Shown piece after piece: positions 32,104 to 56,540 of a stretch of 64,000 nucleotides of DNA; positions within the stretch are counted from its first letter, which is position 1; every line of letters begins with the position of its first letter. The notes beneath the pieces were generated by a model that searched no databases, was not told where the DNA came from, and was given only the letters and a program-made list of their open reading frames with translations. Location: NCBI GenBank assembly GCA_041660005.1, contig JBAZXG010000002.1, positions 24,356-88,355 on the forward strand, in the 5' to 3' direction. Position numbers and translations under genes: made by a program. The DNA is from Patescibacteria group bacterium (GTDB taxonomy: Bacteria > Patescibacteriota > Patescibacteriia > GWA2-46-9).

Positions 32104-33867
32104 ATGAAAAAGGAAATTCGGGGAACAAACAGAGAAATAGGAAGGATTTTCTGGCAACACAGTGCACGCTATAAAAAAGTCGTTGCGCTTGGTCTTACCA
32201 GTATTCTCATCTATAACCTGGCTAGCTTAACCGCACCTTGGTTTTATAGAGCTTTTTTCAATACATTAGCTGCACATCCGGCTGACGCGGTCTCTCAATT
32301 GTCAATAATACTGCTTAAAATACTGGGACTTTACATCATTTCCGTCGTTTTTCGGAGAGTTTCTGCGTTTTCAAACATCTATTGGCAGGCGAAAATTATG
32401 GGCGACCTTTCGCAAACAAGTGAGGCATACATGCTGCAGCATTCGCACCAGTTTTTCATGAATAACTTCGCAGGCTCCTTGGTGCGTAAAGTAAACAAAT
32501 TTTCCCGTGCCTTTGAAGATATAAGTGATAAAATTGTCTTCAACTTTTTACCACTCGTTATTTCTATTTGTGTCATTTTGCCCGTCCTGTTCTCAAGAAG
32601 TATAATTTTGGGCACAGTTTTAACCCTATGGATCACGGTATTTGTTCTTTTGAGCTACCTTTTTGCTCGATGGAAGCAAAAATATGACATAGAACGAAGC
32701 GAAAAGGACTCTGAGGCAACCGGGGTACTCGCTGATATCATCGGCAACAGTTCAACGGTTGAGCTATTCGCTGGGCACAAAAACGAAGAAAACCGCTACA
32801 AAAAAGTTACTGATGAACTCACTGCTATTAGACGTTATTCGTGGGCGCTTAACGAAAAAATGGATGCCGTACATGCAATATTGGCAACATTTACCGAAAT
32901 CGGAGTTATGTATGTGGCTATTAGACTTTGGCAACGAGGGCTTTTAACCCTTGGAGATTTTGCGCTTATACAGTCTTATCTCATTGTACTTATTAACCGC
33001 ATTTGGGATCTCGGAAGCATTATTCGACGATTCTATGAGGGCATGGCAGACGCTGCAGAAATGGTCGGTATTCTTAAGACACCCCATGGCATTCAAGATA
33101 GAAGAAACGCGAAGCCAATAAAGATATTAAAAGGGAAGCTAGAGTTCCAGGATGTAGGTTTTAGCTATCGACAAACGCGAACAATACTGCACAACTTCAA
33201 TCTCACCATTAAACCAGGAGAGCATGTTGCTTTTGTTGGACCGTCTGGGGCTGGAAAAACCACAATCACGAAGCTTATTCTCCGACTTTATGACATAGAT
33301 CAAGGGCGTATTCTCGTTGATGAACAAAACATTGCGGAAGTTACACAAGAAAGTCTGCGGCAACAAATTGCCATGGTGCCTCAGGAACCAATGTTGTTTC
33401 ACCGAACGCTCGCTGAAAATATTCGCTATGGTCGGCCGGGGGCAAGCGATGAAGAGGTAATCGAAGCATCAAAAAAAGCGCATTGCCATGATTTTATTTT
33501 AGAGCTACCGCGTGAGTACGGAACGTATGTTGGAGAGCGAGGCGTTAAGTTGTCTGGCGGCGAACGCCAGCGCGTGGCGATAGCCCGCGCCATCCTGAAA
33601 GACGCGCCGATACTTTTGCTCGACGAGGCAACTTCTTCTCTGGACTCCGAGTCTGAGGCACTCATTCAAGATGCGTTAAAAACACTCATGCAGCACCGAA
33701 CGACAGTCGTGGTCGCTCACCGTCTTTCAACTATCATGCAGATGGATAGAATTGTCGTGGTTGATCAAGGGCAGGTGGTTGACTCAGGGACGCACACTGA
33801 ACTTTTGCAAAGAGAGGGTATATATAAAAAGTTGTGGGATATTCAGGCAGGCGGTTTTATTCCGTAA
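32104..33867 (+). CDS. ABC exporter, fused permease/ATP-binding (ABCB/MsbA-like)
   Basis: 587 aa; 6 TM N-terminal domain; Walker A GPSGAGKTT, signature LSGGERQR, Walker B LLLDEATS. Confidence 0.85.
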   Translation: MKKEIRGTNREIGRIFWQHSARYKKVVALGLTSILIYNLASLTAPWFYRAFFNTLAAHPADAVSQLSIILLKILGLYIISVVFRRVSAFSNIYWQAKIMGDLSQTSEAYMLQHSHQFFMNNFAGSLVRKVNKFSRAFEDISDKIVFNFLPLVISICVILPVLFSRSIILGTVLTLWITVFVLLSYLFARWKQKYDIERSEKDSEATGVLADIIGNSSTVELFAGHKNEENRYKKVTDELTAIRRYSWALNEKMDAVHAILATFTEIGVMYVAIRLWQRGLLTLGDFALIQSYLIVLINRIWDLGSIIRRFYEGMADAAEMVGILKTPHGIQDRRNAKPIKILKGKLEFQDVGFSYRQTRTILHNFNLTIKPGEHVAFVGPSGAGKTTITKLILRLYDIDQGRILVDEQNIAEVTQESLRQQIAMVPQEPMLFHRTLAENIRYGRPGASDEEVIEASKKAHCHDFILELPREYGTYVGERGVKLSGGERQRVAIARAILKDAPILLLDEATSSLDSESEALIQDALKTLMQHRTTVVVAHRLSTIMQMDRIVVVDQGQVVDSGTHTELLQREGIYKKLWDIQAGGFIP

Positions 33868-34050
33868 ATTATTTGATCCGCCACGTACACAGGCGGCTTT
33901 ATACCTTAATAATTTTTTGTACTGCCAGGTGAACAGGCTGGTGGATTTATTTTTCGACAACTCCTTGCGTCGCCGAGCAAACCATTGCTTTACCCACAAA
34001 AGCTATTTCCACGAGCTTGTTTACATGCTCATAATTGATTCAATCGTTGT

Positions 34051-34076
34051 GCTTCCATGTACTAGTACATGGAAGC
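34051..34076. promoter_or_regulatory. perfect 26 bp palindrome GCTTCCATGTACTAGTACATGGAAGC about 45 bp upstream of a TTGACA box; core GTACTAGTAC recurs at 34661..34671 before the paralogous gene
   Basis: seen directly; same relative position upstream of both mini-genes. Confidence 0.5.
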
Positions 34077-34193
34077 ATATACGAAACATCTATTTATACA
34101 AGCATAATATACATATAATTGACAACATTAAACTGCGTTGGTTAACTACCAATGTCTACAACGTAGAAATGCTCACAATGCTGGAGGTGCAAC

Positions 34194-34535
34194 GTGATAC
34201 TTTTTCTTAGGCCCCAGGAATGTTCCGTTCAGAATCCTTGTGCTGAACCGCTGACGGCCGATCCTCGGTTTCCGGTTCTGGTTCAGTACGAGATGCTACA
34301 CGGAGGGTGCCGTGGTTCAGTCGAAGCACTGGAAGATGGCCATACCGGCTACCGCCTGAAGTGCATGAAGTGCGGAGAGCAGGTAACGATTTCCCCGCAA
34401 ACGGTCCTTGACGACATCTTCCGCTCTGTCGTGATACGCCAGAATTACTGGAAAGGGGGCGACACGACAGTCTTCCCGTGGACATGGGAACTGGTGATGG
34501 CGACGATACAGATCGCCGACGAGCTGAAGCCCTAG
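34194..34535 (+). CDS. small zinc-ribbon-like protein, paralog 1 (GTG start after GGAGG)
   Basis: 113 aa; H-x3-C ... C-x2-C pattern (HGGC...CMKCG) shared with 34796..35107; GC-rich vs AT-rich flanks. Confidence 0.5.
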   Translation: MILFLRPQECSVQNPCAEPLTADPRFPVLVQYEMLHGGCRGSVEALEDGHTGYRLKCMKCGEQVTISPQTVLDDIFRSVVIRQNYWKGGDTTVFPWTWELVMATIQIADELKP

Positions 34536-34582
34536 CGTCGACCACACAAGCCGATCTAGCCACAAAGAGGGACCGAGGACAG

Positions 34583-34616
34583 AAGCCGGGCACGCACCAT
34601 GCGTCGCCCGGCTTCC
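34583..34616 (+). terminator. hairpin GAAGCCGGGC..GCCCGGCTTC followed by T-rich tract; near-identical copy at 35141..35174 after the paralog
   Basis: 10 bp stem, duplicated with one mismatch. Confidence 0.55.
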
Positions 34617-34795
34617 TCTTATTTATAAGAGTACTCATCACTTTAGTGCCCGTGTTTCCTTGTACTAGTACGTAGATATTAGAAAAGCTCAACTTTTAGG
34701 TAAAACAACTACTGTATCGTTGACAGAATAGAGTTTAACTGTTTAGCTATCGCTATTCGCACTAGCGAAAAGACTGACGAAGGAGGAACGTCACG

Positions 34796-35107
34796 ATGAT
34801 GATTGGTGTAATGATTGATGACTTCGCTGGCCCTCAGCATACGGAACAAGGAGCGAACTTGAAAGTGCACCATCTCGCTCAGCTCCTCTACCTACATGTC
34901 CCGTGTATGAAACCGGTGCGGCTTAGGAAGGAAGGGGGCAACTACCGATTCGTCTGCGAAGATTGTGGGGCAAACGAGGCCACTATACGGCAGGTCAACC
35001 TGCAAGAGGCCCTCAAAATCGTCCTGCGTTGCAAGCTGTACTACAGGGACGAAAAACATAAACTCCTAATGCTGGAGCTGCCATACGACGAAGGAGTGGG
35101 TTCCTAA
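34796..35107 (+). CDS. small zinc-ribbon-like protein, paralog 2
   Basis: 103 aa; strong RBS GAAGGAGG; HVPC...CEDCG motif; homologous core YxxLHxxC...GYRxxCxxCG..TI. Confidence 0.55.
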   Translation: MMIGVMIDDFAGPQHTEQGANLKVHHLAQLLYLHVPCMKPVRLRKEGGNYRFVCEDCGANEATIRQVNLQEALKIVLRCKLYYRDEKHKLLMLELPYDEGVGS

Positions 35108-35140
35108 AGAGAGACCCGACAGCGAAGGCGCAGAAGCACA

Positions 35141-35174
35141 GAAGCCGGGCACGCACCATGCGTCGCTCGGCTTC
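35141..35174 (+). terminator. duplicate of the 34583..34616 terminator hairpin
   Basis: gaagccgggcacgcaccatgcgtcgctcggcttc + T-rich tail. Confidence 0.55.
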
Positions 35175-35192
35175 CTCACTTTTCAAATTACA

Positions 35193-43378: not shown

Positions 43379-43515
43379 ACATCTTGAATGTTTTCCTTTA
43401 AACTATATTTTCATGAGGGCAAATGGGGCGCTCGATAAAAAACATGGAATTCCTTTTAGGAACTAACTGACTTTTCGGTGGTCACGACTACGTCTTGACC
43501 TATTTTATTGATGTC

Positions 43516-43702
43516 GGAGAGGGAGGGATGCTTCGCTTGTGGAACCCGTCGCTACGCTCTTTCAAACCCAGTTGCTTGGCGCGACACTTACTGATCTTTG
43601 ATTTTGCTGTTGATGTCAGTTTGAATAATTCCGCCACGGGAAACTCCCGTTTCCCAGCCTGTCCGCCTTCGGCGGAACCCCTTCCCGGGGTTCGAATCCC
43701 TA
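43516..43702 (-). repeat. family-1 element (copy A) beginning with a 14 nt copy of the tRNA-Ser 3' end (43516..43529); marks the left border of the island
   Basis: ggagagggagggat matches 58195..58208 of tRNA-Ser; body shares cgctctttcaaaccca..gtttgaataattccgccRcgggaaactcccgtttccc..ggttcgaatccct with the Ala and Leu loci; contains a 50 nt insertion in the P1 loop. Confidence 0.7.
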
Positions 43703-43926
43703 CCAACTATTCTAAGTGGTCTGTGCATTACCCTACAAGAGAGGAGGATTCGCCTACAAGTCGCCTCGCCTTCCGGCTTGGCGCTCGCAGGCCGCCCCTC
43801 GCGGTCTTGCTCGCCCAATTGCGTCGCAAGACATCGCTGCGGTCTTCGAATCCCTCACGCGAGCAAAGCAGTTTGCTCGCTCCTCTCCTCGGCGTTTTTA
43901 TCTTTGATATTTTAAGGAAACTCCTC

Positions 43927-44150
43927 GGAGAGGGAGGGATTTCCGCGTTCCTCGTCGCCAGCATAGCGACTCGTCGCTCTGTCCGGGGCAGCGCTGAAAG
44001 CTGCGCCCGCTCACTTTCATCGGCGCTCGCTTCATTCGCTTTGTCTTCCGCCAAAACTCATGGCTCGCTGCTGCCCGTTCGAATCCCTCTCCATCTTACC
44101 AAAAATGAGCTGTGCCGCCCACGCACACGTGGGCACCACAGCTCATTCGG
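43927..44150 (-). repeat. family-2 element (copy B) beginning with a second 14 nt copy of the tRNA-Ser 3' end (43927..43940), followed by a long hairpin
   Basis: body shares ctctgtccggggcagcgctg...catcggcg...ctgctgcccgttcgaatccct with the element next to tRNA-Lys; 11 bp stem hairpin aatgagctgtg/cacagctcatt at about 44103..44149. Confidence 0.7.
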
Positions 44151-44412
44151 TGTGTCGCGGTCTAGAACCGCCCCATCGCTAGTATTGTAAGGGGTTTCAA
44201 GGGGTTTGGCGATTCAGCGTTTTTAACCGTCTCGGTCGGGGTCTGCTTGAGAAGAGCGAAGCTGAATGCCAAAAAATGCCAAATATTTTCACCTGCCATA
44301 TTATATACAAATAGCGTACTCCTGCTCAGGATACGCCTATTACTGTTATTAAATGCGGATTAGCACCCTCCTCTCTCATTGAGCGCACCACAGACTTTTG
44401 GCATTTGACGAA

Positions 44413-44892
44413 TCAGATCACTCGGCACTCCATTAGGTGACGACAGAGCGCTTCTTTGCTCACTAAGTATTTTTTTGCCAAAAATTCAAGATCGGGATTT
44501 CGTGAGAAGTCTCCTCTAATAAACGCGAGCGGTATCAGGAGCTCGGCTCCAAATTGATAGGCTTCCCGTTCTGCATTACTGTCAGGGTTTTGCCCACAGA
44601 CGTGCCCCATAAGGAAGTGTCCAATCTCGTGAGCAATCGTGAGTCGCCGCCGTACCCAGGCCGGCGTTGGGTTGAAGCCAATCGTCGGCTGACCATCGAT
44701 CATGAGAAGTGCACCATCAACGGTTTCAAACTCAACGCGCATGATATCAAGGCCACGCTGTGCCTTGAGGTGATTAATGACCTTCCACAGCGAGACCGGA
44801 ATTTCATTCACCCCGGAATCTTTAAAGAGCTTTCTGGCGAGTTTCCTCGCCCCACCTACATTCGGACCAAGCTGTACGTCATCATTTTCCAC
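44413..44892 (-). CDS. ImmA/IrrE family metallo-endopeptidase
   Basis: HEIGHFLMGH (HEXXH) motif, 159 aa, downstream of and overlapping XRE gene. Confidence 0.75.
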   Translation of the reverse strand: MENDDVQLGPNVGGARKLARKLFKDSGVNEIPVSLWKVINHLKAQRGLDIMRVEFETVDGALLMIDGQPTIGFNPTPAWVRRRLTIAHEIGHFLMGHVCGQNPDSNAEREAYQFGAELLIPLAFIRGDFSRNPDLEFLAKKYLVSKEALCRHLMECRVI

Positions 44893-45328: not shown

Positions 45329-46591
45329 ATGAAAATTGAACATGTCAACGTAGGCGATCTTAAACCCTCAGTCTACAATCCCAGAAAGTGGGATGAGAAA
45401 ATTATCGCGGATATGACCGAGAGCATCAAGCGGTTCGGTCTGTGCGATCCCCTGATTGTGAATGGTGCCCCCGACAGAAAGAATATCGTAATTGGTGGCC
45501 ATCTGCGCCTGAAGGTTGCGACCAGCCTCGGATTCACCGAGGTGCCAGTCGTTTATCTGAACATTCCAGAGATTGAGCGTGAGCAGGAACTCAACCTTCG
45601 TCTCAATAAAAATCTCGGTAATTGGGACGACGAGCTTCTAAAGGCGTTCGACATGAACCTTCTGCTTGATGTCGGATTCACCCCCGACGAACTGAACTTC
45701 CACTTCGATGACGTCCTCGACGTGAGCGACGACGGATTCAACGTCAAGGAGGAACTTGCCAAAATCACAACGCCGGAGAGTAGGCCGGGCGACCTCTACG
45801 AACTTGGACAACATCGACTGCTCTGTGGCGACGCGCTCGATCTCAATAATATCACAAAGCTAATGGGCAACGAGAAAGCGCATATGATCTTCTGCGATCC
45901 GCCGTACAACATCGGTCTTGACTACAGGAATGGCATCGGCACAGCTGGAAAGTACACCACGGACAAGCTCGTAAACGATAATAAAAGCATAAAAGATTAC
46001 GAGCAGTTTATCGAACAATCCTTACAAAACGCCTTGGCCGCAAGTCGTGACGACGTCCATGTCTTCTACTGGTGCGATGAAAAAAATGTCTGGCTTTTGC
46101 AACAACTCTACCAGAAGCACGGCATCACGAACCGGCGGCTGTGCCTCTGGGTGAAAAACAATTTCGATCCTACACCGCAGGTTGCCTTTAACAAGGTTAT
46201 TGAACCATGCGTCTATGGCACCCGCGGCAAACCCGCACTTAACTCTAGCATTAAGAACCTGTCGGAAATCATGAACCAAGATGTGAACTCTATTGGTATG
46301 TACGACGACCTCATGAGCATCGTCCAGCTCTGGCTCGTGAAGCGCGACAACACCGCCGACTATGAGCACCCCACTCAAAAGCCAATCACTCTAAATGAGA
46401 AGCCGATGAAGCGCTGCAGTGCACCTGGAGAAATCGTACTCGACTTCTTCGGCGGAAGCGGATCGACACTCATTGCTGCCGAGCAGTTGAAACGCCGCGC
46501 TTTCCTCGTTGAGCTCGATCCCATATTTTGCGATCTCATTATTCGACGCTATGAACACTTCACCGGCAACCACGCCAAAAGAATCCAATAA
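45329..46591 (+). CDS. ParB-like nuclease domain fused to beta-class DNA methyltransferase (N6-adenine or N4-cytosine)
   Basis: N-terminal ParB/Srx fold (IVIGGHLRLKVA); motif IV DPPYNIG then motif I FFGGSGSTLIAAEQLKRRAFLVE at C-terminus (IV before I = beta class). Confidence 0.8.
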   Translation: MKIEHVNVGDLKPSVYNPRKWDEKIIADMTESIKRFGLCDPLIVNGAPDRKNIVIGGHLRLKVATSLGFTEVPVVYLNIPEIEREQELNLRLNKNLGNWDDELLKAFDMNLLLDVGFTPDELNFHFDDVLDVSDDGFNVKEELAKITTPESRPGDLYELGQHRLLCGDALDLNNITKLMGNEKAHMIFCDPPYNIGLDYRNGIGTAGKYTTDKLVNDNKSIKDYEQFIEQSLQNALAASRDDVHVFYWCDEKNVWLLQQLYQKHGITNRRLCLWVKNNFDPTPQVAFNKVIEPCVYGTRGKPALNSSIKNLSEIMNQDVNSIGMYDDLMSIVQLWLVKRDNTADYEHPTQKPITLNEKPMKRCSAPGEIVLDFFGGSGSTLIAAEQLKRRAFLVELDPIFCDLIIRRYEHFTGNHAKRIQ

Positions 46592-47333
46592 TCCCTCCGA
46601 CGGCCTATGGCGGCTCGGCAGTCACCGCCTTCTTCGCGGAGACGCCACAAAGAAGGCGGATGTGGACAGGCTCATCAACGGCGACAAAGTGACGCTGCTT
46701 TTAACCGATCCTCCGTACGGTGTTGGGTACGTTGAAGGCAAGCAAGAATTCTTGAAAACAATTCACCGAGGAAACAAATCAAAAAAATTTACTGCCATCC
46801 AAGGAGACGGTGTGGGGGATGACTACTACGACTTCTCACGAAAATGGCTGGAAACGGTTCGGCCTCACTTCAAGGACAAAAATGCATTTTATATTTTTAA
46901 CGGAGACGCGAAGCTCAGAGAGTTCCTGAACGCCCTGCACGACACGGGATACACAAAGTCGGCACTCCTCATCTGGCTGAAGAACCATCTCGTCGTCGGC
47001 CGAAAAGATTTTCACCCGCAGCACGAGCTCATCGCCTACGGCTGGTACGGCAGACACGCGTTTTTCGGCAACAAGGATAGGACGACACTCTTCTACCCCA
47101 AACCGAGCAGCAGCAAGCTCCACCCCACCATGAAGCCACCCGCACTTCTGCGACGCCTCATCTATCACAGCACCAAGCCGGGAGATATCGTCCTGGATTT
47201 ATTTGGTGGTTCCGGATCGACTTTGATCGCCTGCGAGCAGCTAGGCAGACGATGCTTCATGATGGAATGCGACACCTCGTACTGCGCCACCATCGTCGAA
47301 CGATGGCAGAAACTCACCAAGGGAAAAGCATAA
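46509..47333 (+). CDS. beta-class DNA methyltransferase (second, stand-alone; start probably internal Met)
   Basis: motif IV LLTDPPYGVGY, motif I LDLFGGSGSTLIACEQLGRRCFMMEC; overlaps upstream MTase in another frame. Confidence 0.8.
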   Translation: MSSIPYFAISLFDAMNTSPATTPKESNNPSDGLWRLGSHRLLRGDATKKADVDRLINGDKVTLLLTDPPYGVGYVEGKQEFLKTIHRGNKSKKFTAIQGDGVGDDYYDFSRKWLETVRPHFKDKNAFYIFNGDAKLREFLNALHDTGYTKSALLIWLKNHLVVGRKDFHPQHELIAYGWYGRHAFFGNKDRTTLFYPKPSSSKLHPTMKPPALLRRLIYHSTKPGDIVLDLFGGSGSTLIACEQLGRRCFMMECDTSYCATIVERWQKLTKGKA

Positions 47334-47749
47334 CCCTGTCCTCATGTATCACGTCTATGGAAAGTACGGAGGCCGAACATTCGAAAACCATATCAGTGTA
47401 CAAGAAACAAGAATTCGAGGCCTACGTGCTGTGGCGATCGATGCCGTCAATCCTGCGTGGCCAGCCGAGGCACGTCATCGAAAAACTTGGCATCGACGAC
47501 GAGATTGCTATGTCGCTCCTCGACATCAAGAACCAGACCGAGTTCGCCAAGCGGTATGGCATCAAGGATCTCGGGACCCTGACAGACTGGAACAAACGAA
47601 TCGATGAGATGGGCGGACTCATGCGCTACATCAACGCCTGGGCCAAGCGCCTGACTCCGAACGTTATCTCAGCCCTGTACCGCGAGGCCACGAAGAGCGG
47701 ACGGGCCGCCGAGGTCAAAGCCTGGATGGAAATTATTGAAGGGATGTAA
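47252..47749 (+). CDS. putative HTH DNA-binding protein (terminase-small-subunit/Nu1-like helix-turn-helix); probable start at 47360
   Basis: EFAKRYGIKDLGTLTDWNKR resembles wHTH of phage small terminase/Nu1; weak. Confidence 0.3.
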   Translation: MLHDGMRHLVLRHHRRTMAETHQGKSITLSSCITSMESTEAEHSKTISVYKKQEFEAYVLWRSMPSILRGQPRHVIEKLGIDDEIAMSLLDIKNQTEFAKRYGIKDLGTLTDWNKRIDEMGGLMRYINAWAKRLTPNVISALYREATKSGRAAEVKAWMEIIEGM

Positions 47750-47754
47750 ACAAT

Positions 47755-47973
47755 ATGGAGATTGAAGAAAAAAATCTACGGAAAACACTCAGCATAGAAG
47801 AAGCGGCGGGCATTTTGTCTGACACGCTCCGCGATGTGGCCGAGCGCAAGACTACAGTGCGGCGGGCGCTGGTAATGTCGCGCCTGGCGTTGGCACTCTC
47901 CAGAGTACTCGAAATTGCCGACCTCAAAGCTCGCGTCGAGTTTTTAGAGCAAATGTTAAAGAAACGACGCTAA
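47755..47973 (+). CDS. small coiled-coil hypothetical protein
   Basis: 72 aa ORF tightly packed between neighbours. Confidence 0.3.
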   Translation: MEIEEKNLRKTLSIEEAAGILSDTLRDVAERKTTVRRALVMSRLALALSRVLEIADLKARVEFLEQMLKKRR

Positions 47974-47974
47974 T

Positions 47975-49816
47975 ATGGCCAACCTCTCCACCGCTCTGCG
48001 GACCGGGAACCTGACCGCACGCGAACGGTTCCTGCTCCTCATCCAAAACGACATCCAGCGCATGAAGACGGGAAAAGATATCCTGACGACGGCCGACAAA
48101 GCCGCGCTCGAGAATTGGCAAGCTAAAAATAACGTCGAAGCGTCTGAGTGGAACCGCCTGAACGAGGGGTGGAAACACACTGGACGCATGGACATTGAAG
48201 TTGAGTTCGCCTACCAGGAAGCGAACGCCGCACATCTCGCCAAGCTGCCAATCATCATTGAGCTCCTCACCTACCGGGCTGATCGAGAGATGAGCCGCTG
48301 TATCAATGTCCTGAAGCGATTGAAAAAAGTAAACCCAAAAGAAGCGAGCGTGATCATCGCCAAGCAGAAAGCCGCCAAACTCAAAGAAGGCATAGACGTC
48401 GAGTACGCGGTTTACCGGTTGGCCTTCGAGCGCCTCACTCCGGCAGAACAACAGCAAATGAAAGAGCTCTACGGCGACGTTGAAACTGACCATCAGTACC
48501 TCGACCAAGAGGAGGTTATCGCCAATCTGTACGGCAACCAAACCGAGCTCACCCCCGAGGCAAAAGATAAGCTCGCCACGCTGGTAGCCGAACGGAGCTA
48601 TAACGCATTTGCCAAAGAACATCAACTCTTCCATTACTTCGCCTGCATCCCGCTTGCTGAGGTGGCCCGATACTTCATCGCGCTAAAAAATATCATCCTG
48701 CCAAGCGAATCATCGCCTGCAGACGGAAAGGAAAAGGACCCATTCGCCGATCTCAATCAGTGCAACGAGTTGGCTGAAGCATTACAAACGTACGCGACGA
48801 CGCACCACACCACGGTCGAGAAGCTGCTCACGGAAGCGTGCCGCGTCTGGCTCGATGACGGCCTTCTTGAAACTTACACGCCGCTCGTCACGAGCAACAA
48901 TGCCGCGCTTTTTGAGCGGTGGCTCGCGGCCAAAATTGAAGCCAAGACGGTTATAACTCAACACGTTAGTGCTGGTGAACTCATGCTGCGCCATCGTACG
49001 GAGGAAGAAACAAGAAAGGAAAAGCTCTTGAGCAAAGACAGCTACGACCGTGAGTTAGCCACGGCACAAGCAGTACTTGAGGAGATCGGACGGGAGGCGA
49101 CAATCAAAGGAGAGCTTGATGAAAAATCAGCCTTCGAGACGTTCGCCGATCAGGTCATTACTGGCGAGAGTCTCTACGCATTCCCGGGCGACTACGAATT
49201 TGTGAAAAGCTTCAAGGAGCGAGCCGACATATACGACCCCAACCTCGGCATTGTCTACGCGGACGATGATCCAAACCACGCAGGCGAGCACTTGGACCAG
49301 GAACTCCTCATCTGCGACATAACCGACAGCGGCGACGCGAGCGTCTTTAGCCGCTACGGCATGGCGATATCGCTACTCGCAAACATCTTCGATAAAAAAA
49401 TGTTTTTTGAGGAGGTTGCCGAGGACGGAAAACTATTCCTTCACTTCAAGGATTCGCAGATTGAGGAGGCGTTCCGGGCAAGACAACAAAACCTCGTCGA
49501 TGGCTACGCCAAACTCCTCGCCTATCAAGCGGTGTTTAGCAAAGTGGCCGCCATCTACGAGGCCGACCTTGCCTACCACGTCACGGAACGGCTGACGGGG
49601 TTACGCGAAAATATTACCCAGCACAACGAGGCAGTTCAGCAAGCGACGAACCTCGGCGAACGGCTGCACCGAAAAGCAAAGTACGACTTCTTCCGGAGAC
49701 GTGACCGGCTATACTTGAAAGAGGATCTTGTTATAAATATCGATACGATCAAGCCTGACCAAGCAACCATGAAAGAGCACGAAGCGAAGTTGAAAAGGAT
49801 TTTTGGGAACTTCTAA
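47975..49816 (+). CDS. large hypothetical alpha-helical protein (island cargo)
   Basis: 613 aa, no P-loop or known motif recognised. Confidence 0.5.
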   Translation: MANLSTALRTGNLTARERFLLLIQNDIQRMKTGKDILTTADKAALENWQAKNNVEASEWNRLNEGWKHTGRMDIEVEFAYQEANAAHLAKLPIIIELLTYRADREMSRCINVLKRLKKVNPKEASVIIAKQKAAKLKEGIDVEYAVYRLAFERLTPAEQQQMKELYGDVETDHQYLDQEEVIANLYGNQTELTPEAKDKLATLVAERSYNAFAKEHQLFHYFACIPLAEVARYFIALKNIILPSESSPADGKEKDPFADLNQCNELAEALQTYATTHHTTVEKLLTEACRVWLDDGLLETYTPLVTSNNAALFERWLAAKIEAKTVITQHVSAGELMLRHRTEEETRKEKLLSKDSYDRELATAQAVLEEIGREATIKGELDEKSAFETFADQVITGESLYAFPGDYEFVKSFKERADIYDPNLGIVYADDDPNHAGEHLDQELLICDITDSGDASVFSRYGMAISLLANIFDKKMFFEEVAEDGKLFLHFKDSQIEEAFRARQQNLVDGYAKLLAYQAVFSKVAAIYEADLAYHVTERLTGLRENITQHNEAVQQATNLGERLHRKAKYDFFRRRDRLYLKEDLVINIDTIKPDQATMKEHEAKLKRIFGNF

Positions 49817-50029
49817 CTCATTAGTCTACCCGGACCACCTCGAGACCGGACCCAAATTGGTCAACGCCGATAAGGTTTTTGAAGCCTATTTATGATTATT
49901 GAAACAACGTACCCTAAGCACCCTGAAATATAATCTCCCAAACATTAATACCCACATAAGGTGTACGGAGAAAATAGACCACAGAAACGAAGTGTATTCC
50001 GTCCTCCACTTTCCATATTTCAGAACTTT

Positions 50030-51116
<1,087 letters not shown>

Positions 51117-51122
<6 letters not shown>

Positions 51123-51485
51123 ACATCCCCTATAACTAAAGTGCAGCAAGAAATACCGATTGTGCAAAAACTCTACGATCTCTACAAAACCTTCTACGGC
51201 TTCGCCGTGCTTTTTCCGAAGAAAGATAAGTACACACTCGGCGCAAAGTGTGAACAGTACATAATCAACACACTGGAATTGATACTGGCAGCAAGTGCAG
51301 TTACTCCGGCAGAGAAGCTTGGTCTACTACGTCAAGCAAACGTAAAGTTCGATACGCTTAAGGTATTTCTTCGATTATCCCGTGAGATTGGAGCAATCGA
51401 CGCGAAAAAATATCTTGTCCTCCAGAGAGAAATTCAAGAAATTGGTCGCATGCTTGGCGGCTGGCAACGGTCGCTCAGTGCATAA
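51117..51485 (+). CDS. avd: DGR accessory variability determinant Avd (four-helix-bundle protein)
   Basis: 122 aa; KLYDLYKTFYGFAVLFPKKDKYTLG...EIGRMLGGWQRS resembles Bordetella phage bAvd (..EVGRILGSWIAR) and the four-helix-bundle family; start ATG overlaps RT start in palindrome ATGCAT. Confidence 0.75.
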
Positions 51486-51544
51486 TCAACATCGGGGACC
51501 TGTAAGAACAGAATCCCCGAGCCAACTGCTATCGTAGACACAAT

Positions 51545-51663
51545 CCGAGGAAGGACACTCCACCAGAGTAGTTGTCGTTCGCATTCGCAAGATTCGTCCT
51601 GTTGTCGAACTCGAGCTTATCGTCGTTCGGGTTCAGGTAGAGCGAGTACTCAGCGGACTGCCA
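51545..51663 (-). repeat. DGR template repeat (TR)
   Basis: 119 nt about 89% identical to 52085..52203; 12 of 13 differences are at TR adenines (coding strand). Confidence 0.85.
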
Positions 51664-51965
51664 GAATATACCATTCCCCACCGATATGCACCGGCCCTCG
51701 GCCAGAGTTTCCTCTAGCTCCGAGCCTGAATTTTATTCGGTTCATTAGAGAACCCTAGAAAATGGTACGTAGTGTCTACGTGCTCTGCATACGCTCTGGC
51801 AATCAAGTATTTCCTTACCTGACAACTACCAGACTCTGATACATTGATGAGCATGAAGGATTTCGGCGGCCGTGATTAGATGAAGCCAACCACGGTACAT
51901 GAGCCTAATCTCAAAAGCAGTGTAGCATCAGTTCTCGTTTGTTGAAAAATTTTGAAAAAGGAAAA

Positions 51966-51990
51966 GCGGCATGACTGGAAATCATGCCGC
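51966..51990 (-). terminator. terminator hairpin for the DGR target gene (GCGGCATGA/TCATGCCGC), T-run on minus strand
   Basis: 9 bp stem, followed on minus strand by ttttcctttttcaaaattttt. Confidence 0.55.
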
Positions 51991-52080
51991 TGTCCGTAGG
52001 AGGGATCCGGAAGAAAACCGGAAGACCAAAAACCGAAATCCTTGGTCCAAGGTTCAAACTTCCGAAACCCGAAGTCCACA

Positions 52081-52983
52081 CTACCCGAGGAAGGACACCC
52101 CACCAGAGGAGTCGTCGCACGCATGCGCAAGAGCCGTCCTGTTGTCGAACTCGAGCTCCTCGTCGTGCGGGAGCAGGTAGAGCGAGTACTCAGCGGACTG
52201 CCACTGGTAGGCGGAGAGGTCGATCACCGGGGTGTTGTTGTCCCGGCAGATGACCTCTGGCCACATGATGGCTGAGAGGATGGCGTTGAAGCCGTTGAGG
52301 ATGAACCCCTCCGGCAACGTCGCCATCTGCTCACGCTGGGCGTGCACCGAGAATCCCTGCGTTGCACAAGGCAGCTCGATCGTGGCGATCGGACCTTCCT
52401 TGGCGCGAACGAGGAGAAGATCGAGCCGACTCTCCGGCACGACCGTCACTTGCCCTTCGAGCTGACCCCGACGGTGGTTGGTAAAACCACGACCAGGGAA
52501 CTCGGCCTTGTACGCACGCTCGAGCGCCGAGAGAAGAAACTCGAGCATCTGGCCGTGGTCGTGGACAACCATCTGCGGAACGATGATTGGCAGGTGCACA
52601 CCCATCCCGACGTTCACCACCGAGGAATCGTCGAGGATGACCATGAGACGGCCGACCTCGTCCTCGAACCAAGCCGCGTCGGGCAACACGATGTTGCCTT
52701 CGAAGGCGTGATCCATGCGCTCGCGACGAGCTGCGTAGTCAATGACCTCCGGCTGGAGCAGATGGTACGCGCGATTGGCGTCGCAGACCTTGGCCTTGAT
52801 GCCACGAGGTGGAATACGCCGACCGTGACGATCGAAGAACATCGAGATGACCTCTTCGATCGTTACCTTGGCACCGGCCAAGATTGCGTTCACGGCTCCG
52901 AGCCCGTCGCCGCCGTAGACGCATCCCAGCAGATCGATGAGCTTCTCGTTCTGATTCCCTGTCAAAGATCCGTACTTTGCCAT
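52081..52983 (-). CDS. DGR variable (target) protein; VR occupies the last about 40 codons
   Basis: 300 aa, GC-rich; C-terminus ...QSAEYSLYLLPHDEELEFDNRTALAHACDDSSGGVSFLG aligned to TR-encoded ...QSAEYSLYLNPNDDKLEFDNRTNLANANDNYSGGVSFLG (Asn AAC/AAT codons diversified). Confidence 0.8.
   Translation of the reverse strand: MAKYGSLTGNQNEKLIDLLGCVYGGDGLGAVNAILAGAKVTIEEVISMFFDRHGRRIPPRGIKAKVCDANRAYHLLQPEVIDYAARRERMDHAFEGNIVLPDAAWFEDEVGRLMVILDDSSVVNVGMGVHLPIIVPQMVVHDHGQMLEFLLSALERAYKAEFPGRGFTNHRRGQLEGQVTVVPESRLDLLLVRAKEGPIATIELPCATQGFSVHAQREQMATLPEGFILNGFNAILSAIMWPEVICRDNNTPVIDLSAYQWQSAEYSLYLLPHDEELEFDNRTALAHACDDSSGGVSFLG
52085..52203 (-). repeat. DGR variable repeat (VR) at the 3' end of the target gene
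   Basis: see TR; adenine-specific substitution pattern. Confidence 0.85.
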
Positions 52984-53402
52984 TGCTGGCCTCCGTTATC
53001 AGGCATCATGTGCCCGATGTCTTTAGCCAATTCCCTTGGCCGTTGGGGTCTTTTCCTCTACAGGATCAATCTAGAAATACTAGGGAAAAGACATTGCAAT
53101 GTAGCAGAAATGACAGGAAAAGTCAATGACTTTCGGGTGAATATTTAAATGGTTGATTCAATACAATCTGCTTGCACATATCACAATAAATAAAGGCATC
53201 AATAACTCCTAAAGTATAACCACCAAAAATCAGCCGGATGTAAAACATCAATACCCAGGCTTTCGCCTGGGTATTGATCCTAATGTGTATTCTGTGGGAA
53301 CGATGCTTCTCGATGCTCGTTCTTAACGTGATTGAAAATCCGGTGCCGTTTATTGGGTTCGTATAACCTATCCCACGCTAAGTCGGACAAATGCAGCAAC
53401 AC

Positions 53403-53867
53403 TTACCGCTCAAGAATTTGTTTCTTCTTGGCCTGAAATTCTACTTCCGTTAAGACACCCTTATCTCGAAGATCAGCATATTTCGCCAGCTCATCAACGC
53501 CACTAACCGCTGAACCTCCTCCTCGAATCTGGGCTATTCTTGCTTCGATAAGCTCTCTGACTTTTGCAGAGCGTTCATTGTTGTTATTGGTGATATGGAA
53601 GTTAATACTATTTTCGTCAGTGGCGGACTGAAAAAGACCGCTCTTTGCCTCTGAACCACCAACCAAGGTTAGCTGGAGATAGCCGGCAGTCATACCTGCT
53701 TTTTTGAGTTGCACGGCGACAATGGAGCTATAGGGAATTGTTTTTTCGCCTCGCAGCATCATACCGCCAAGGAGGAAACCCTTTACCCCTCGCTTTATAA
53801 CGACGCCAACATCGGTGAGGATAAGCGTTCCGTTATAGCCGCGAAATTCTTCTATTGATTCGTTCAT
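53403..53867 (-). CDS. DUF4429 (PH-like) domain protein with C-terminal SHOCT domain
   Basis: C-terminal LAKYADLRDKGVLTEVEFQAKKKQIL SHOCT motif. Confidence 0.55.
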   Translation of the reverse strand: MNESIEEFRGYNGTLILTDVGVVIKRGVKGFLLGGMMLRGEKTIPYSSIVAVQLKKAGMTAGYLQLTLVGGSEAKSGLFQSATDENSINFHITNNNNERSAKVRELIEARIAQIRGGGSAVSGVDELAKYADLRDKGVLTEVEFQAKKKQILER

Positions 53868-53878
53868 AAAAGAGTGTG

Positions 53879-54895
53879 TTATTTCTCCCAGGTTGTGCCG
53901 TCGGTAAAATGAACATGGTATGGCTCAACCTCGATCTTCGACGTGGTGTCGTGACCAAAGAGACTCCACGCATCCGAACCTGTTTTGCTGGGAGCAATAA
54001 GAGAACCTTGGCTAAGACCATTGAAGACGTTATCTCCCAGAAAGCTGGCGGGCTCCCCAAAACTGTTAAACATCCTGATATGCAGCTTGTATGCGTCGAT
54101 GGTTTTGTCTGACACATTCTTAATCGTCACATTCGCTTGAGGCATACCAATGATGTCTTTGGTAACACTGCTTTTCACAATCTCGAGAGGAATTGGTTCT
54201 TGTGCGATTGTTGCGGCTGATGGCTTAGACGAAACTACTGGCGTTGTTGTCGCCGTAGATGAATCTAATTTATTTGTGCTAGTTGATGAAGCAGCGGCTA
54301 CAATCACCAGAACAACCAAGACCGCGACCGTGATTGCAGTCTTATGCCGCGTTATGTTTTCCTCCCACTTACTTAAGTGGGGTTGTGCCAGTGGTTCTCC
54401 TTCCATACGATGCGTGTATCGAGAAGCAAGGAGGTGCATAATAATACCGCCGGACAACCCAACAACAAACCCTAGTCCAACCGCTAATGTCCCGCCTATC
54501 GCCGTACCAATAGCTGCGCCAGCTTGCGCTGCCCCGCTCGTGTTCCTCACCGCCGCCGCGCCGACATGAAACATTATAGCGAGTGCAGAGATGGGCAGAA
54601 GAAAGAAGCCAATCTCTGTGGCCCGAAACAAATCCTTCAGTACTTTATTCTTGTTCGTATCCGACCACACATGCAGAATTAGCAGAGCCCAAAAAATTAT
54701 AAACCCGAGACCCATGGCTCGGTTTCCAGACATCCACGCCCAATTTTGAGTAAATACAGCGGCAGGAAGGAGAGTGGCCAATATCTTCGTTGGCAAGAAT
54801 CGATTCTTCGATTGAGGAGTGTGTTGCTCCATAAAAATAAAGAATAAAAAAATAAGCACCTCGGGTATGACGAGACGCTTTGGGTATATACACAA
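53879..54895 (-). CDS. membrane protein with 5-6 TM helices and C-terminal extracytoplasmic domain, hypothetical
   Basis: 338 aa. Confidence 0.45.
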   Translation of the reverse strand: MCIYPKRLVIPEVLIFLFFIFMEQHTPQSKNRFLPTKILATLLPAAVFTQNWAWMSGNRAMGLGFIIFWALLILHVWSDTNKNKVLKDLFRATEIGFFLLPISALAIMFHVGAAAVRNTSGAAQAGAAIGTAIGGTLAVGLGFVVGLSGGIIMHLLASRYTHRMEGEPLAQPHLSKWEENITRHKTAITVAVLVVLVIVAAASSTSTNKLDSSTATTTPVVSSKPSAATIAQEPIPLEIVKSSVTKDIIGMPQANVTIKNVSDKTIDAYKLHIRMFNSFGEPASFLGDNVFNGLSQGSLIAPSKTGSDAWSLFGHDTTSKIEVEPYHVHFTDGTTWEK

Positions 54896-55085
54896 AGCCC
54901 CCCGCCAGCGATAGCCTTACGGCTACCCATACCCGTTTCCAGGTATGACCGGTAAGGGTGCTCTGACGAGGAGCCCTTTATTCCTTACCGGTTTTCGGCC
55001 ATGCCCAGAGCGAACTCTGAGTTTAGGCCATACTCAAATTGTGCTCACATGGTAGCAGGGAAACCCCTATAAATAAAGGGTCTTT

Positions 55086-56540
55086 ATGGGGACTTACCTA
55101 CAAGTTACCTACAGCTCGTTTAGGGACTTTTTGCGGATTCCAGTGATTCTAGCCGCTCTGGACTCCCTAGAGGGGTTGCGTCATCAATGTGGCTATATGA
55201 ACCACGGTAATACAACGGGGCCGGACGGAGCGGACGCCCCAACCAAGGAACAACCGCTCCCTATTAACGTGCGGTACTGCCTGTACGCAAGGAAAAGTAC
55301 CGAATCGGAGGAACGCCAGATCCTCTCCATTGATTCGCAGATTAAAGAGATGCTGGAATTGGCTGAGCGGGAGGGGTTGGAGGTAGCCGAGATAAGGCGC
55401 GAGAGCCACTCGGCTAAGAGTTCTGGTGCGAGAAAGGTGTTCAACGAAATCCTCGTTGACATTAGAGGGGGCCGCTTCAATGGACTTCTAACCTGGGCTC
55501 CAGATAGGCTTGCGCGTAATGCGGGTGACCTAGGGTCGTTAGTTGACCTTATTGACCAGAAAACGCTTATTGAAATACGCACGTTCAGCCAACGGTTCAC
55601 GAACAACCCGAATGAGAAATTCCTCCTCATGATTCTCGGCAGCCAGGCAAAGCTCGAGAACGATAACCGTGGCATTAATGTCAAGCGCGGTATGAAGACC
55701 CGCTGCGAAATGGGACTACGGCCGAACGTCGCACCGACCGGATACTTGAATGAGAAACGGACGGATAAAAAGTGCCACGCTATCGTTGACCCCGAACGTG
55801 GGCCCATCATCAAACAAATGTTTGAGAAAGTAGCGAACGAACACTGGTCAGGACGGAAGCTCTACCACTGGTTGAAGTTCGAGTTGAACTTTAAGACCAA
55901 AGGAAATAAAAACTTGTCGCTCTCCAATATTTACATCATCATCAATAATCCCTTCTACTACGGTGTCTTCGAATTCCCGCGAGGCAGCGGTAACTGGTAT
56001 ACCGGAATCCATACGCCACTAGTCGCGAAGGAGCTCTACGACCAAGCCCATACCCAGTTAAAGCGTGACCGCATTGTCCGAGCTGAGATTAAAGAATTCG
56101 CCTTCACGAAGCTCCTAGCCTGTGGCGATTGCGGGTCTGGAATCTCGGCTGACGAGAAGTACAAGCATCTCAAAGATGGCACCATGGCACGGTATGTGTA
56201 CTACGGCTGCACGCGAGCAAGAAACCTGCACTGCAAAGGTGGATACATCCGCGAGGAGGAACTGATCAATCAAATGATTGCCATCATTGATCAGCTCGAC
56301 ATCAACGAGATTGGCATGCGGTACAAGTTTGACGAAGAGATGGCAAGGCTCGCCAAGTTCCAAAAGAACTTCTACGGCGCAGCTGGCGGCACCGCACCTA
56401 AACTTGAGAACGTGGACTTGAAGGGCTACGCCAAATACTTACTGCGCGAGGGCAGCGTCATTGAAAAACGTGAACTCATGGCCTGCATCAAAAGCAAGCT
56501 CGTGCTGACGCGGAAAGTGTTGACGCTGCAAACACAGTAA
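55086..56540 (+). CDS. large serine recombinase/integrase (start probably at internal Met about 55197)
   Basis: resolvase catalytic domain YARKSTESEERQILSIDSQ, recombinase domain, zinc ribbon CGDCGS...YYGCTRARNLHCKGG, C-terminal coiled coil. Confidence 0.8.
   Translation: MGTYLQVTYSSFRDFLRIPVILAALDSLEGLRHQCGYMNHGNTTGPDGADAPTKEQPLPINVRYCLYARKSTESEERQILSIDSQIKEMLELAEREGLEVAEIRRESHSAKSSGARKVFNEILVDIRGGRFNGLLTWAPDRLARNAGDLGSLVDLIDQKTLIEIRTFSQRFTNNPNEKFLLMILGSQAKLENDNRGINVKRGMKTRCEMGLRPNVAPTGYLNEKRTDKKCHAIVDPERGPIIKQMFEKVANEHWSGRKLYHWLKFELNFKTKGNKNLSLSNIYIIINNPFYYGVFEFPRGSGNWYTGIHTPLVAKELYDQAHTQLKRDRIVRAEIKEFAFTKLLACGDCGSGISADEKYKHLKDGTMARYVYYGCTRARNLHCKGGYIREEELINQMIAIIDQLDINEIGMRYKFDEEMARLAKFQKNFYGAAGGTAPKLENVDLKGYAKYLLREGSVIEKRELMACIKSKLVLTRKVLTLQTQ

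Follow-up and report, generated by a model that had tools for sequence, protein, structure and literature searches.

Positions 34050-35177 of a 64-kb window (the whole stretch of DNA that was analysed), which belongs to an Uhrbacteria-like patescibacterium of the candidate phyla radiation (CPR), contain two small open reading frames (ORF1 and ORF2), each in a unit of its own. The locus is best explained as one single-gene transcription unit that was duplicated in tandem long ago. The two copies are collinear and have lengths of ~600 and ~560 nt. Each consists of a palindrome, a promoter-like element, a Shine-Dalgarno sequence, an ORF and a hairpin block that resembles a terminator. The encoded proteins share a putative metal-binding motif and represent a lineage-specific family without detectable relatives. 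This anatomy had been set out in a preliminary description made from the sequence alone; all of the elements described there are present, with small corrections that are given below. We consider it reasonably probable that the locus as a whole is correctly read as an old tandem duplication, in an Uhrbacteria-like genome, of a single-gene unit with a regulated promoter and an orphan gene for a protein with a metal motif.

The tandem duplication is evident from the collinear offsets of the conserved blocks, and the similarity of the two proteins adds to this. The palindromes are separated by 603 nt, the -35 boxes by 601 nt, the start codons by 602 nt and the terminators by 559 nt. In a sliding-window comparison, at least 85% identity between the units is reached only at the palindrome and at the terminator, with lesser peaks at the -35/-10 region and at the Shine-Dalgarno region. 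The identity of the spacers and of most of the ORFs is near the random level, so the duplication is old. The elements that are still alike are presumably constrained or homogenised. The products of the two ORFs are 26% identical over 66 amino acids (aa). Their similarity has a z-score of about 6, and none of 2000 shuffles reached the alignment score. As had been described, the genes are GC-rich islands in an AT-rich stretch (54-61% GC in the ORFs and terminator blocks vs 33-40% in the spacers). Each gene is also surrounded by a separate set of conserved cis elements, with palindrome, -35 box and hairpin present in both units.

ORF1 (34194..34535, + strand, GTG start) codes for a protein of 113 aa with an isoelectric point (pI) of 5.0. 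ORF2 (34796..35107, + strand, ATG start) codes for a protein of 103 aa with a pI of 6.95. Both ORFs look protein-coding, and their assignment as paralogs of these lengths is retained from the preliminary description. The conservation between the copies is frame-specific and synonymous-biased; the lack of such a bias had been named beforehand as the outcome that would point to a non-coding duplicated region, and the bias is present. Among 36 frame pairs, the ORF/ORF pair has the best Smith-Waterman score (51, with 44 for the next pair), and this score was not reached in any of 2000 shuffles (mean 25, standard deviation 4). Identity at codon positions 1, 2 and 3 is 0.45, 0.50 and 0.34 over 58 aligned codons, while composition alone predicts ~0.27. 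For 10 of the 16 identical residues, the two genes use different synonymous codons; among these are both Gly, the His and two of the three Cys that are conserved. The GC content by codon position is 0.61/0.41/0.65 in ORF1 and 0.63/0.30/0.62 in ORF2, which is coding-like (position 1 exceeds position 2, and position 3 is high).

The gene boundaries deserve a comment. The gene calls from the Joint Genome Institute (JGI) start at internal ATG codons (window positions 34293 and 34907) and result in proteins of 80 and 66 aa (P0001 and P0002). There is no comparable Shine-Dalgarno signal upstream of these internal codons, and the short form of ORF2 would lose part of the common motif, the conserved H-x2-C. 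An F-x2-P-Q motif that is conserved in both proteins is located upstream of the internal Met codons. A second, independent gene caller, applied to a Logan contig that carries the locus (L214), predicted 113 and 103 aa. The assigned start codons are preceded by strong Shine-Dalgarno sequences: GGAGG at 34183..34187 (+ strand), 6 nt before the GTG of ORF1, and GGAGG within AAGGAGG at 34782..34786 (+ strand), 9 nt before the ATG of ORF2. The long forms, rather than the JGI calls, are thus supported by the Shine-Dalgarno signals, by the conservation of N-terminal residues and by the calls on the Logan contig.

Both proteins have the motif H-x2-C, then 16-17 residues, then C-x2-C-G, as had been noted beforehand (conserved His-Cys...Cys-x2-Cys). 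The putative ligands are H36, C39, C57 and C60 in the ORF1 protein (codons at 34299-34301, 34308-34310, 34362-34364 and 34371-34373, + strand) and H34, C37, C54 and C57 in the ORF2 protein (codons at 34895-34897, 34904-34906, 34955-34957 and 34964-34966, + strand). Homologs were searched for extensively. A word-indexed search of 5.8 billion clusters returned only the two proteins themselves, and HMMER profiles run exhaustively against 1.84 billion representative proteins gave self matches only. Tblastn of both proteins against 80 related loci and against the window gave no match. Pfam returned only DUF951 (E 0.049) and CDC24_OB3 (E 0.064), both below their cut-offs, and neither protein has a significant match in NCBIfam, PHROGs or PADLOC; the profile searches that had been suggested for the two proteins thus gave no significant family match. 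The best match to a sequence in PDB is the second zinc-ribbon knuckle of GltJ/AgmX (7zok), which, with an E-value of 0.46, is not significant. A Foldseek search of PDB with the AlphaFold model of the first protein gave nothing below E ~1. In both AlphaFold models, the structural elements have the same order (helix, H-x2-C, beta-hairpin, C-x2-C, strand, helix). One protein is acidic and the other neutral, their grand average of hydropathy (GRAVY) is -0.12 and -0.24, and no signal peptide or membrane segment was seen when the sequences were read by eye.

It is probable that a single metal ion, most likely zinc, is bound by the conserved core. The original label of the proteins as small zinc ribbons is plausible but unproven: the motif is conserved and the models, which are of low confidence, predict strands around C-x2-C, while no profile or fold match is significant. 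The closest comparison is with zinc-ribbon/MJ0042-type domains such as those of Myxococcus GltJ/AgmX (7zok). Shared features are the C-x2-C-G knuckle, the preceding strand with an aromatic and a basic residue (Y-R-h-x-C-x2-C-G), the following strand, a second putative ligand pair that is located 16-17 residues upstream, and the similarly small domain size. In contrast to these domains, the first ligand pair of the proteins described here is an H-x2-C at the predicted end of a helix rather than a C-x2-C knuckle, and there is neither a Pfam zinc-ribbon match nor a fold match. A double-glycine leader, which would allow export by the neighbouring ATP-binding cassette (ABC) exporter, was considered and rejected. 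The 'LHGG' of ORF1 corresponds to 'LHVP' in ORF2, and the exporter has ABC_membrane, ABC_tran and generic P-loop matches in Pfam with no peptidase domain.

Each ORF is followed by a hairpin block of 43 nt. Block 1 (34576..34618, + strand) contains a hairpin at 34582-34615, after which comes CUCUUAUUUAU; block 2 (35135..35177, + strand) contains a hairpin at 35141-35174 with the tail CUCACUUUUCAAAUU. Hairpin 1 has 15 base pairs, one bulge and a 3-nt loop and is very stable (-32.3 kcal/mol, z -6.1). Hairpin 2 has a folding energy of -26.7 kcal/mol (z -5.8). The claim of a near-identical GC-rich hairpin of 34 nt after each gene holds true: the two copies have a single mismatch, and within the 43-nt block 41 of 43 positions (95%) are identical. 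Zero matches to the hairpin are expected by chance. A search for more copies of it, as had been proposed, found none in the 64-kb window, and there were 0 matches in viral contigs. The only difference within the stem (C to T in copy 2) replaces G-C by G-U in the RNA of the + strand. Pairing is thus kept there, in line with an RNA hairpin that is transcribed in the direction of the ORF. Block 2 lies 19 nt from the stop codon of a convergent permease gene. Most likely, the hairpin would terminate transcription. A sequence similar to the 3' half of the hairpin (CCATGCGTCGCCCGGCTTCC), namely CCTTGCGTCGCCGAGCAAACC, is found at 33963-33985, ~65 nt before palindrome 1. This is possibly a decayed third hairpin half, at the place expected for the terminator of a lost upstream unit; the match is weak and could be due to chance.

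The promoter-like elements have the same layout in both units. Element 1 (34119..34147, + strand) consists of TTGACA (34119-34124), 14 nt, TGG (an extended -10 motif, TGn) and TTAACT (34142-34147). Element 2 (34720..34748, + strand) consists of TTGACA (34720-34725), 14 nt, TGT and TTAGCT (34743-34748). The TTGACA box that had been reported before each small ORF is thus found at 34119 and 34720, with a distance to the start codon of 75 nt in unit 1 and 76 nt in unit 2. Both elements combine a perfect -35 box, 17-nt spacing and TGn with a weak -10 hexamer (TTARCT). This layout is kept between the two units and also in a related genome (contig L008, see below), with the -35 box aligned in all three. 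From this consensus we infer a sigma-70-type promoter before each ORF. A consensus scanner called neither promoters (with three of six positions matching, the -10 hexamers are below its threshold) nor terminators in the units.

Palindrome 1 (34050..34077, no strand assigned) is a perfect palindrome, TGCTTCCATGTACTAGTACATGGAAGCA, with the core GTACTAGTAC at 34059-34068. It had been described as perfect over 26 bp; it is indeed perfect, and its length is 28 bp. Its arms of 14+14 nt are 100% complementary without a spacer, and it is the longest perfect zero-spacer palindrome of the window. Folded as RNA, it would be stable (-24.3 kcal/mol, z -8), with no U-tract behind it. Palindrome 2 (34652..34676, no strand assigned) is a degenerate copy with the core at 34662-34671 and has 84% identity to copy 1 over 25 nt. 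Compared to copy 1, the left arm is kept and the right arm has decayed, and the copy is palindromic only within the 10-bp core. It does not form a stable hairpin (-4 kcal/mol, z +1). Because the unit-2 copy does not fold, the common element is the duplex 10-bp core together with the left arm; this fits better to a protein-binding site on DNA than to an RNA structure. Most likely, the palindrome would be the binding site of a dimeric DNA-binding protein that is encoded elsewhere. The location of both palindromes upstream of TTGACA stands as described, with the distance from the core to TTGACA corrected from ~45-70 bp to 50 nt in unit 1 and 48 nt in unit 2. The palindromes had been called operators, which is plausible but unproven. 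Their centre precedes the inferred transcription starts by about 86-91 nt (~90 nt for ORF1), well away from the promoter core. If the palindrome is regulatory, it is an upstream site rather than a classical operator.

Class I sites of CRP-type activators are centred near -61.5, -72.5, -82.5 or -92.5. The promoters described here resemble such upstream-activator promoters in having a palindromic site centred ~86-91 nt upstream and a good -35 box with a weak -10 hexamer. Unlike in these promoters, the spacing varies by ~5 bp among the three cases, so that the helical phase is not kept, and the site is putative.

The 10-mer GTACTAGTAC is not significant when taken alone: there are 2 matches in the window, and a count of 2 or more was reached in 12 of 100 shuffles. 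The suggested search for additional palindromes uncovered no core copy in the 64-kb window beyond these two. A literature search for the 10-mer retrieved nothing relevant, judging by title and abstract. A metagenome-wide scan for GTACTAGTACRT-N40-51-TTGACA resulted in at least 120 stretches, and none among the matches listed had an extended palindrome and a good -10 hexamer. The source contig itself is not among the matches listed, and the pattern is too unspecific. The same pattern has 12 matches, from ~5 families, in viral contigs; these were rejected as chance matches, none having an extended palindrome with a good -10 hexamer.

Two observations on related motifs may be added. In a family of viral contigs from IMG/VR (L082, L083, L085 and L089), six GTAC/AGTAC motifs are located ~70 nt upstream of TTGACA. 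The last three of them are ~10 nt apart, which gives them the look of an operator array; this array is probably unrelated to the window. Furthermore, CTAG is strongly depleted in the window, with 80 occurrences observed vs 247 expected from base composition and 109 expected from a second-order model. Both palindromes have a central CTAG despite this window-wide depletion.

The gene upstream of the locus codes for the ABC exporter (32104..33867, + strand; Pfam ABC_membrane and ABC_tran), which serves as the upstream anchor; its orthologs in related CPR genomes precede other orphan single-gene units. The site downstream of this conserved exporter is a variable spot, where relatives carry one to four unrelated orphan units. 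In L215/L216 (also in L217-L218), four single-gene units with orphans of 186, 234, 176 and 121 aa come after the orthologous exporter (L215 5006-7727). Each of these comes with a terminator, a TTGACA box and a Shine-Dalgarno sequence of its own and an ORF without a Pfam domain; recR is next. In L008/L219, one orphan of 175 aa follows the exporter (L008 2360-3190) and is 48% identical to the 176-aa protein of L215. L022 (7737-8400) has a 188-aa member of the same orphan family directly after the exporter, so this 175-188-aa family recurs in three related genomes. The orphan proteins of the relatives are unrelated to those encoded by ORF1 and ORF2. Because the relatives' units are built likewise, a promoter, a Shine-Dalgarno sequence, a small ORF and a terminator are the normal packaging of such lineage-specific genes in this group. 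ORF1 and ORF2 are a local case in which a unit of this kind was duplicated. The units share with those of L215/L216, L008/L219 and L022 the place directly after the exporter's terminator, their own TTGACA promoter and Shine-Dalgarno sequence, an ORF without a Pfam domain and their own terminator. They differ from them in being paralogous to each other and in having a nearly identical terminator, while the units of L215 have a different terminator each, no boundary repeats in common, and no palindrome. The palindrome is missing in L215 both after the exporter and before the 176-aa homolog.

In 930 kb of related loci, the core GTACTAGTAC has a single occurrence, which is in L008; about one is expected by chance. 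It is located 87 nt after the exporter stop codon and 45 nt before the TTGACA-N17-TAGAAT of the unrelated 175-aa orphan. This core lies within a near-palindrome that is also 28 bp long (CGTACTTACGTACT/AGTACATGAGTACG). Its arms are complementary at 11 of 14 positions, and in their outer parts they differ in sequence from those in the window. A rough post-hoc estimate of the probability that both position and promoter distance agree by chance is about 1e-3. The match is thus probably meaningful and points to a conserved binding site ~86-91 nt upstream of the inferred starts. The near-palindrome, at L008 2437-2464 (= L219 2380-2407), contains four GTAC motifs with distances of 8, 6 and 8 nt from start to start (cGTACttacGTACtaGTACatgaGTACg), and its outer halves fit GTAC-N4-GTAC. 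This pattern may resemble the LexA box described for cyanobacteria, RGTAC-N3-DGTWCB.

Taken together, we propose the following mode of action. A dimeric DNA-binding protein from elsewhere in the genome would bind the GTACTAGTAC-core palindrome and co-regulate both genes from upstream. Each transcript would start at a sigma-70-type promoter (TTGACA, 14 nt, TGn, TTARCT). Its 5' leader, counted from the inferred start, would be roughly 40 nt long and would end in the strong Shine-Dalgarno sequence. Each ORF would give a soluble, acidic-to-neutral protein of about 100-113 aa. The predicted core of this protein has a helix ending in H-x2-C, a beta-hairpin, C-x2-C-G, a strand and a helix, and would bind one metal ion. 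A very stable stem-loop would end transcription of each unit, and the family would sit in a turnover spot downstream of the conserved exporter gene. Of these parts, the duplication, the coding signature, the lack of homologs, the hairpin stability and the variable surroundings are demonstrated, and the use of the promoters, termination, metal binding and the binding of a protein to the palindrome are deduced.

Several points weigh against this proposal. The codon-usage log-odds of the ORFs are 0.06-0.11, compared to 0.15-0.40 in the long genes of the window, and are no better than those of some antisense frames. Metal binding is deduced from four conserved residues in just two sequences, and the confidence of the AlphaFold models is low (mean predicted local distance difference test score, pLDDT, of 44-45, with ~57-66 in the core). 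Promoters and terminators are assigned at the level of consensus, and the -10 hexamers match it at three of six positions only. The palindrome of unit 2 is degenerate, and the match in L008 is a single post-hoc observation. The distance between palindrome and promoter differs by up to ~5 bp among the three cases, which is half a helical turn and therefore argues against an activator that strictly depends on the face of the helix. The U-tracts after the hairpins are poor, with CUCUUAUUUAU and CUCACUUUUCAAAUU being only moderately U-rich. Finally, the terminator block is 95% identical, including the loop and the unpaired 5' flank, although synonymous sites and spacers are saturated. The proposal does not account for such uniformity; termination alone would allow covarying stems. 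Recurrent gene conversion of short tracts may have homogenised the block in the tandem copies, or the block may be recognised by sequence.

Other explanations of the locus were weighed. The units might be mobile, as had been suggested, or captured cassettes: a recombinase that is site-specific or recognises hairpins would insert promoter-to-terminator mini-genes, bounded by the palindrome (5') and the hairpin (3'), after the exporter. The boundary elements are indeed far better kept than the cargo (84% and 95% vs ~43% nucleotide identity), the locus varies from relative to relative, the core recurs at this place in a related genome, and the sequence at 33963-33985 may be a decayed third hairpin half. 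The 28-bp palindrome can also be read as 11-6-11, like Xer-type recombination sites such as dif. We nevertheless regard mobility as quite unlikely. Neither element has another copy in the window, the hairpin has no match in viral contigs, and the unit has none in phage and plasmid collections. No recombinase, integrase or transposase was found among ten neighbouring ORFs that were scanned (23.9-44.9 kb), and no flanking target-site duplication was found at the units. The orphan arrays of L215 have no boundary repeats in common and no palindrome, and the two cargos are paralogous, as is predicted by local duplication and not by independent captures. Dispersed copies, as a MITE- or REP-like repeat would have, were likewise found neither elsewhere in the 64-kb window nor in the viral, phage and plasmid collections. 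A dif site or replication terminus was rejected as well, since almost the entire window has a negative GC skew, without a switch near 34 kb; in addition, the palindrome is devoid of ATAA-N6-TTAT, the inner arms found in known dif sites. Cassettes of integrons usually lack a promoter of their own, have an attC site with conserved core motifs and reside beside intI with attI and Pc. The units resemble them as short one-gene tandem units with an imperfect palindrome at the 3' end. They differ in having their own promoter-like elements, a hairpin without a GTTRRRY-type core, and no integrase among the ten scanned ORFs. A broader alternative, which we consider unlikely, is that palindrome and hairpin are recognition sites of a CPR-specific system, either a dedicated regulator or DNA/RNA-binding factor that would mark and co-control post-exporter orphans, or a mechanism for the capture of promoter-to-terminator mini-genes. 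If this were true, the occurrence of the palindrome in two genomes with exporters that are ~52% identical would reflect function and not chance.

The regulator could also be the gene product itself. Each paralog has a palindrome copy to itself, with a spacing that hardly varies, and small zinc-ribbon proteins can bind nucleic acids, so that each zinc-motif protein might bind upstream of its own promoter. Such autoregulation is improbable: the proteins are acidic or neutral, the palindrome is ~90 nt upstream of the inferred start and not over the promoter, and the same core precedes an unrelated orphan in L008, with no homolog of the proteins in the searched databases. If the ORFs were accidental, the GC-rich islands could be structured RNAs in a duplicated non-coding region, for which their GC content relative to the flanks, the long ORFs on the antisense strand and the only weakly positive codon-usage score could be adduced. 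This is very unlikely given the frame-specific, synonymous-biased conservation and the strong Shine-Dalgarno sequences at correct spacing from the start codons. Moreover, Rfam scans with gathering and E-value thresholds gave no credible match (the best has 20 bits and is sub-threshold), the fold of the whole units has z-scores of -1.85 and -1.15, much of which comes from the terminator hairpin, and the antisense ORFs read the common hairpin in different frames. The units had also been labelled 'toxin/antitoxin-like', which two adjacent small genes of unknown function would suit. A toxin-antitoxin or other two-gene defence module is extremely improbable, as the two genes are paralogs of one another and have no PADLOC, Pfam or NCBIfam matches. 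There is no obvious hydrophobic segment of the type I toxin kind (judged by eye and by the GRAVY values). Unlike in type II systems, where two different genes are co-transcribed from one autoregulated promoter, each gene has its own TTGACA box and its own hairpin. The tandem duplication of a single-gene unit remains our preferred reading.

Genomes of the CPR, mainly those of Candidatus Uhrbacteria and other Parcubacteria, contain the nearest homologs of the exporter (52-59% identity); the host is therefore assigned as an Uhrbacteria-like patescibacterium. The other neighbours are ordinary: NusA, RNase HII, an H+-pyrophosphatase, an amino-acid permease, and ORFs for the periplasmic binding protein and the ABC ATPase of a Liv-type amino-acid importer. 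The locus was found on three contigs from three samples, among them the Logan contig L214; JGI 3300014208 and SRR18595301 are source samples. Because it is 100% identical in all three carrying samples, strain variation does not allow an estimate of dN/dS.

Additional features of the window were observed. The last 20 nt of the exporter gene, including the stop codon (33848-33867), recur 42 nt downstream (33890-33909) with 85% identity. Around the stop codon, GGCGG, CCGCC and GGCGG would allow two mutually exclusive 5-bp hairpins, the second of which precedes a U-rich run; this may be a terminator or an attenuator-like arrangement. A full-length LOOT RNA (Rfam RF03000) is located at 54910-55029 (- strand), with 90.7 bits vs a gathering score of 46.4. 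The region 45329-56540 may be compositionally foreign DNA: four long genes there have a GC content at third codon positions (GC3) of 0.62-0.78, compared to ~0.35-0.54 in nearly all other genes, the extreme being the gene at 52081-52983 (- strand; GC3 0.78, GC 0.61). The ORF at 44413-44892 (- strand) has a Peptidase_M78 (ImmA/IrrE-like) domain (E 2e-15). Proteins of this type usually have a helix-turn-helix regulator as partner. The ORF beside it (43495-44190, 231 aa) has no Pfam match.

The locus is genuine, yet as a lineage-specific pair of genes it is rather ordinary: a new orphan family with the usual packaging. The nearly invariant hairpin amid saturated flanks is a small puzzle, for which gene conversion or sequence-specific recognition may be responsible; neither would be field-changing. 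The most useful by-product is a candidate cis-regulatory palindrome before TTGACA promoters in two distant CPR genomes. To our knowledge, there are no experimentally defined transcription-factor sites in this group. If our reading is true, the locus adds a small family of metal-motif proteins without relatives. The region after the exporter in Uhrbacteria-like CPR genomes would then be a turnover spot for independently transcribed orphan genes, which bears on how lineage-specific genes are gained and lost in these very small, fast-evolving genomes.

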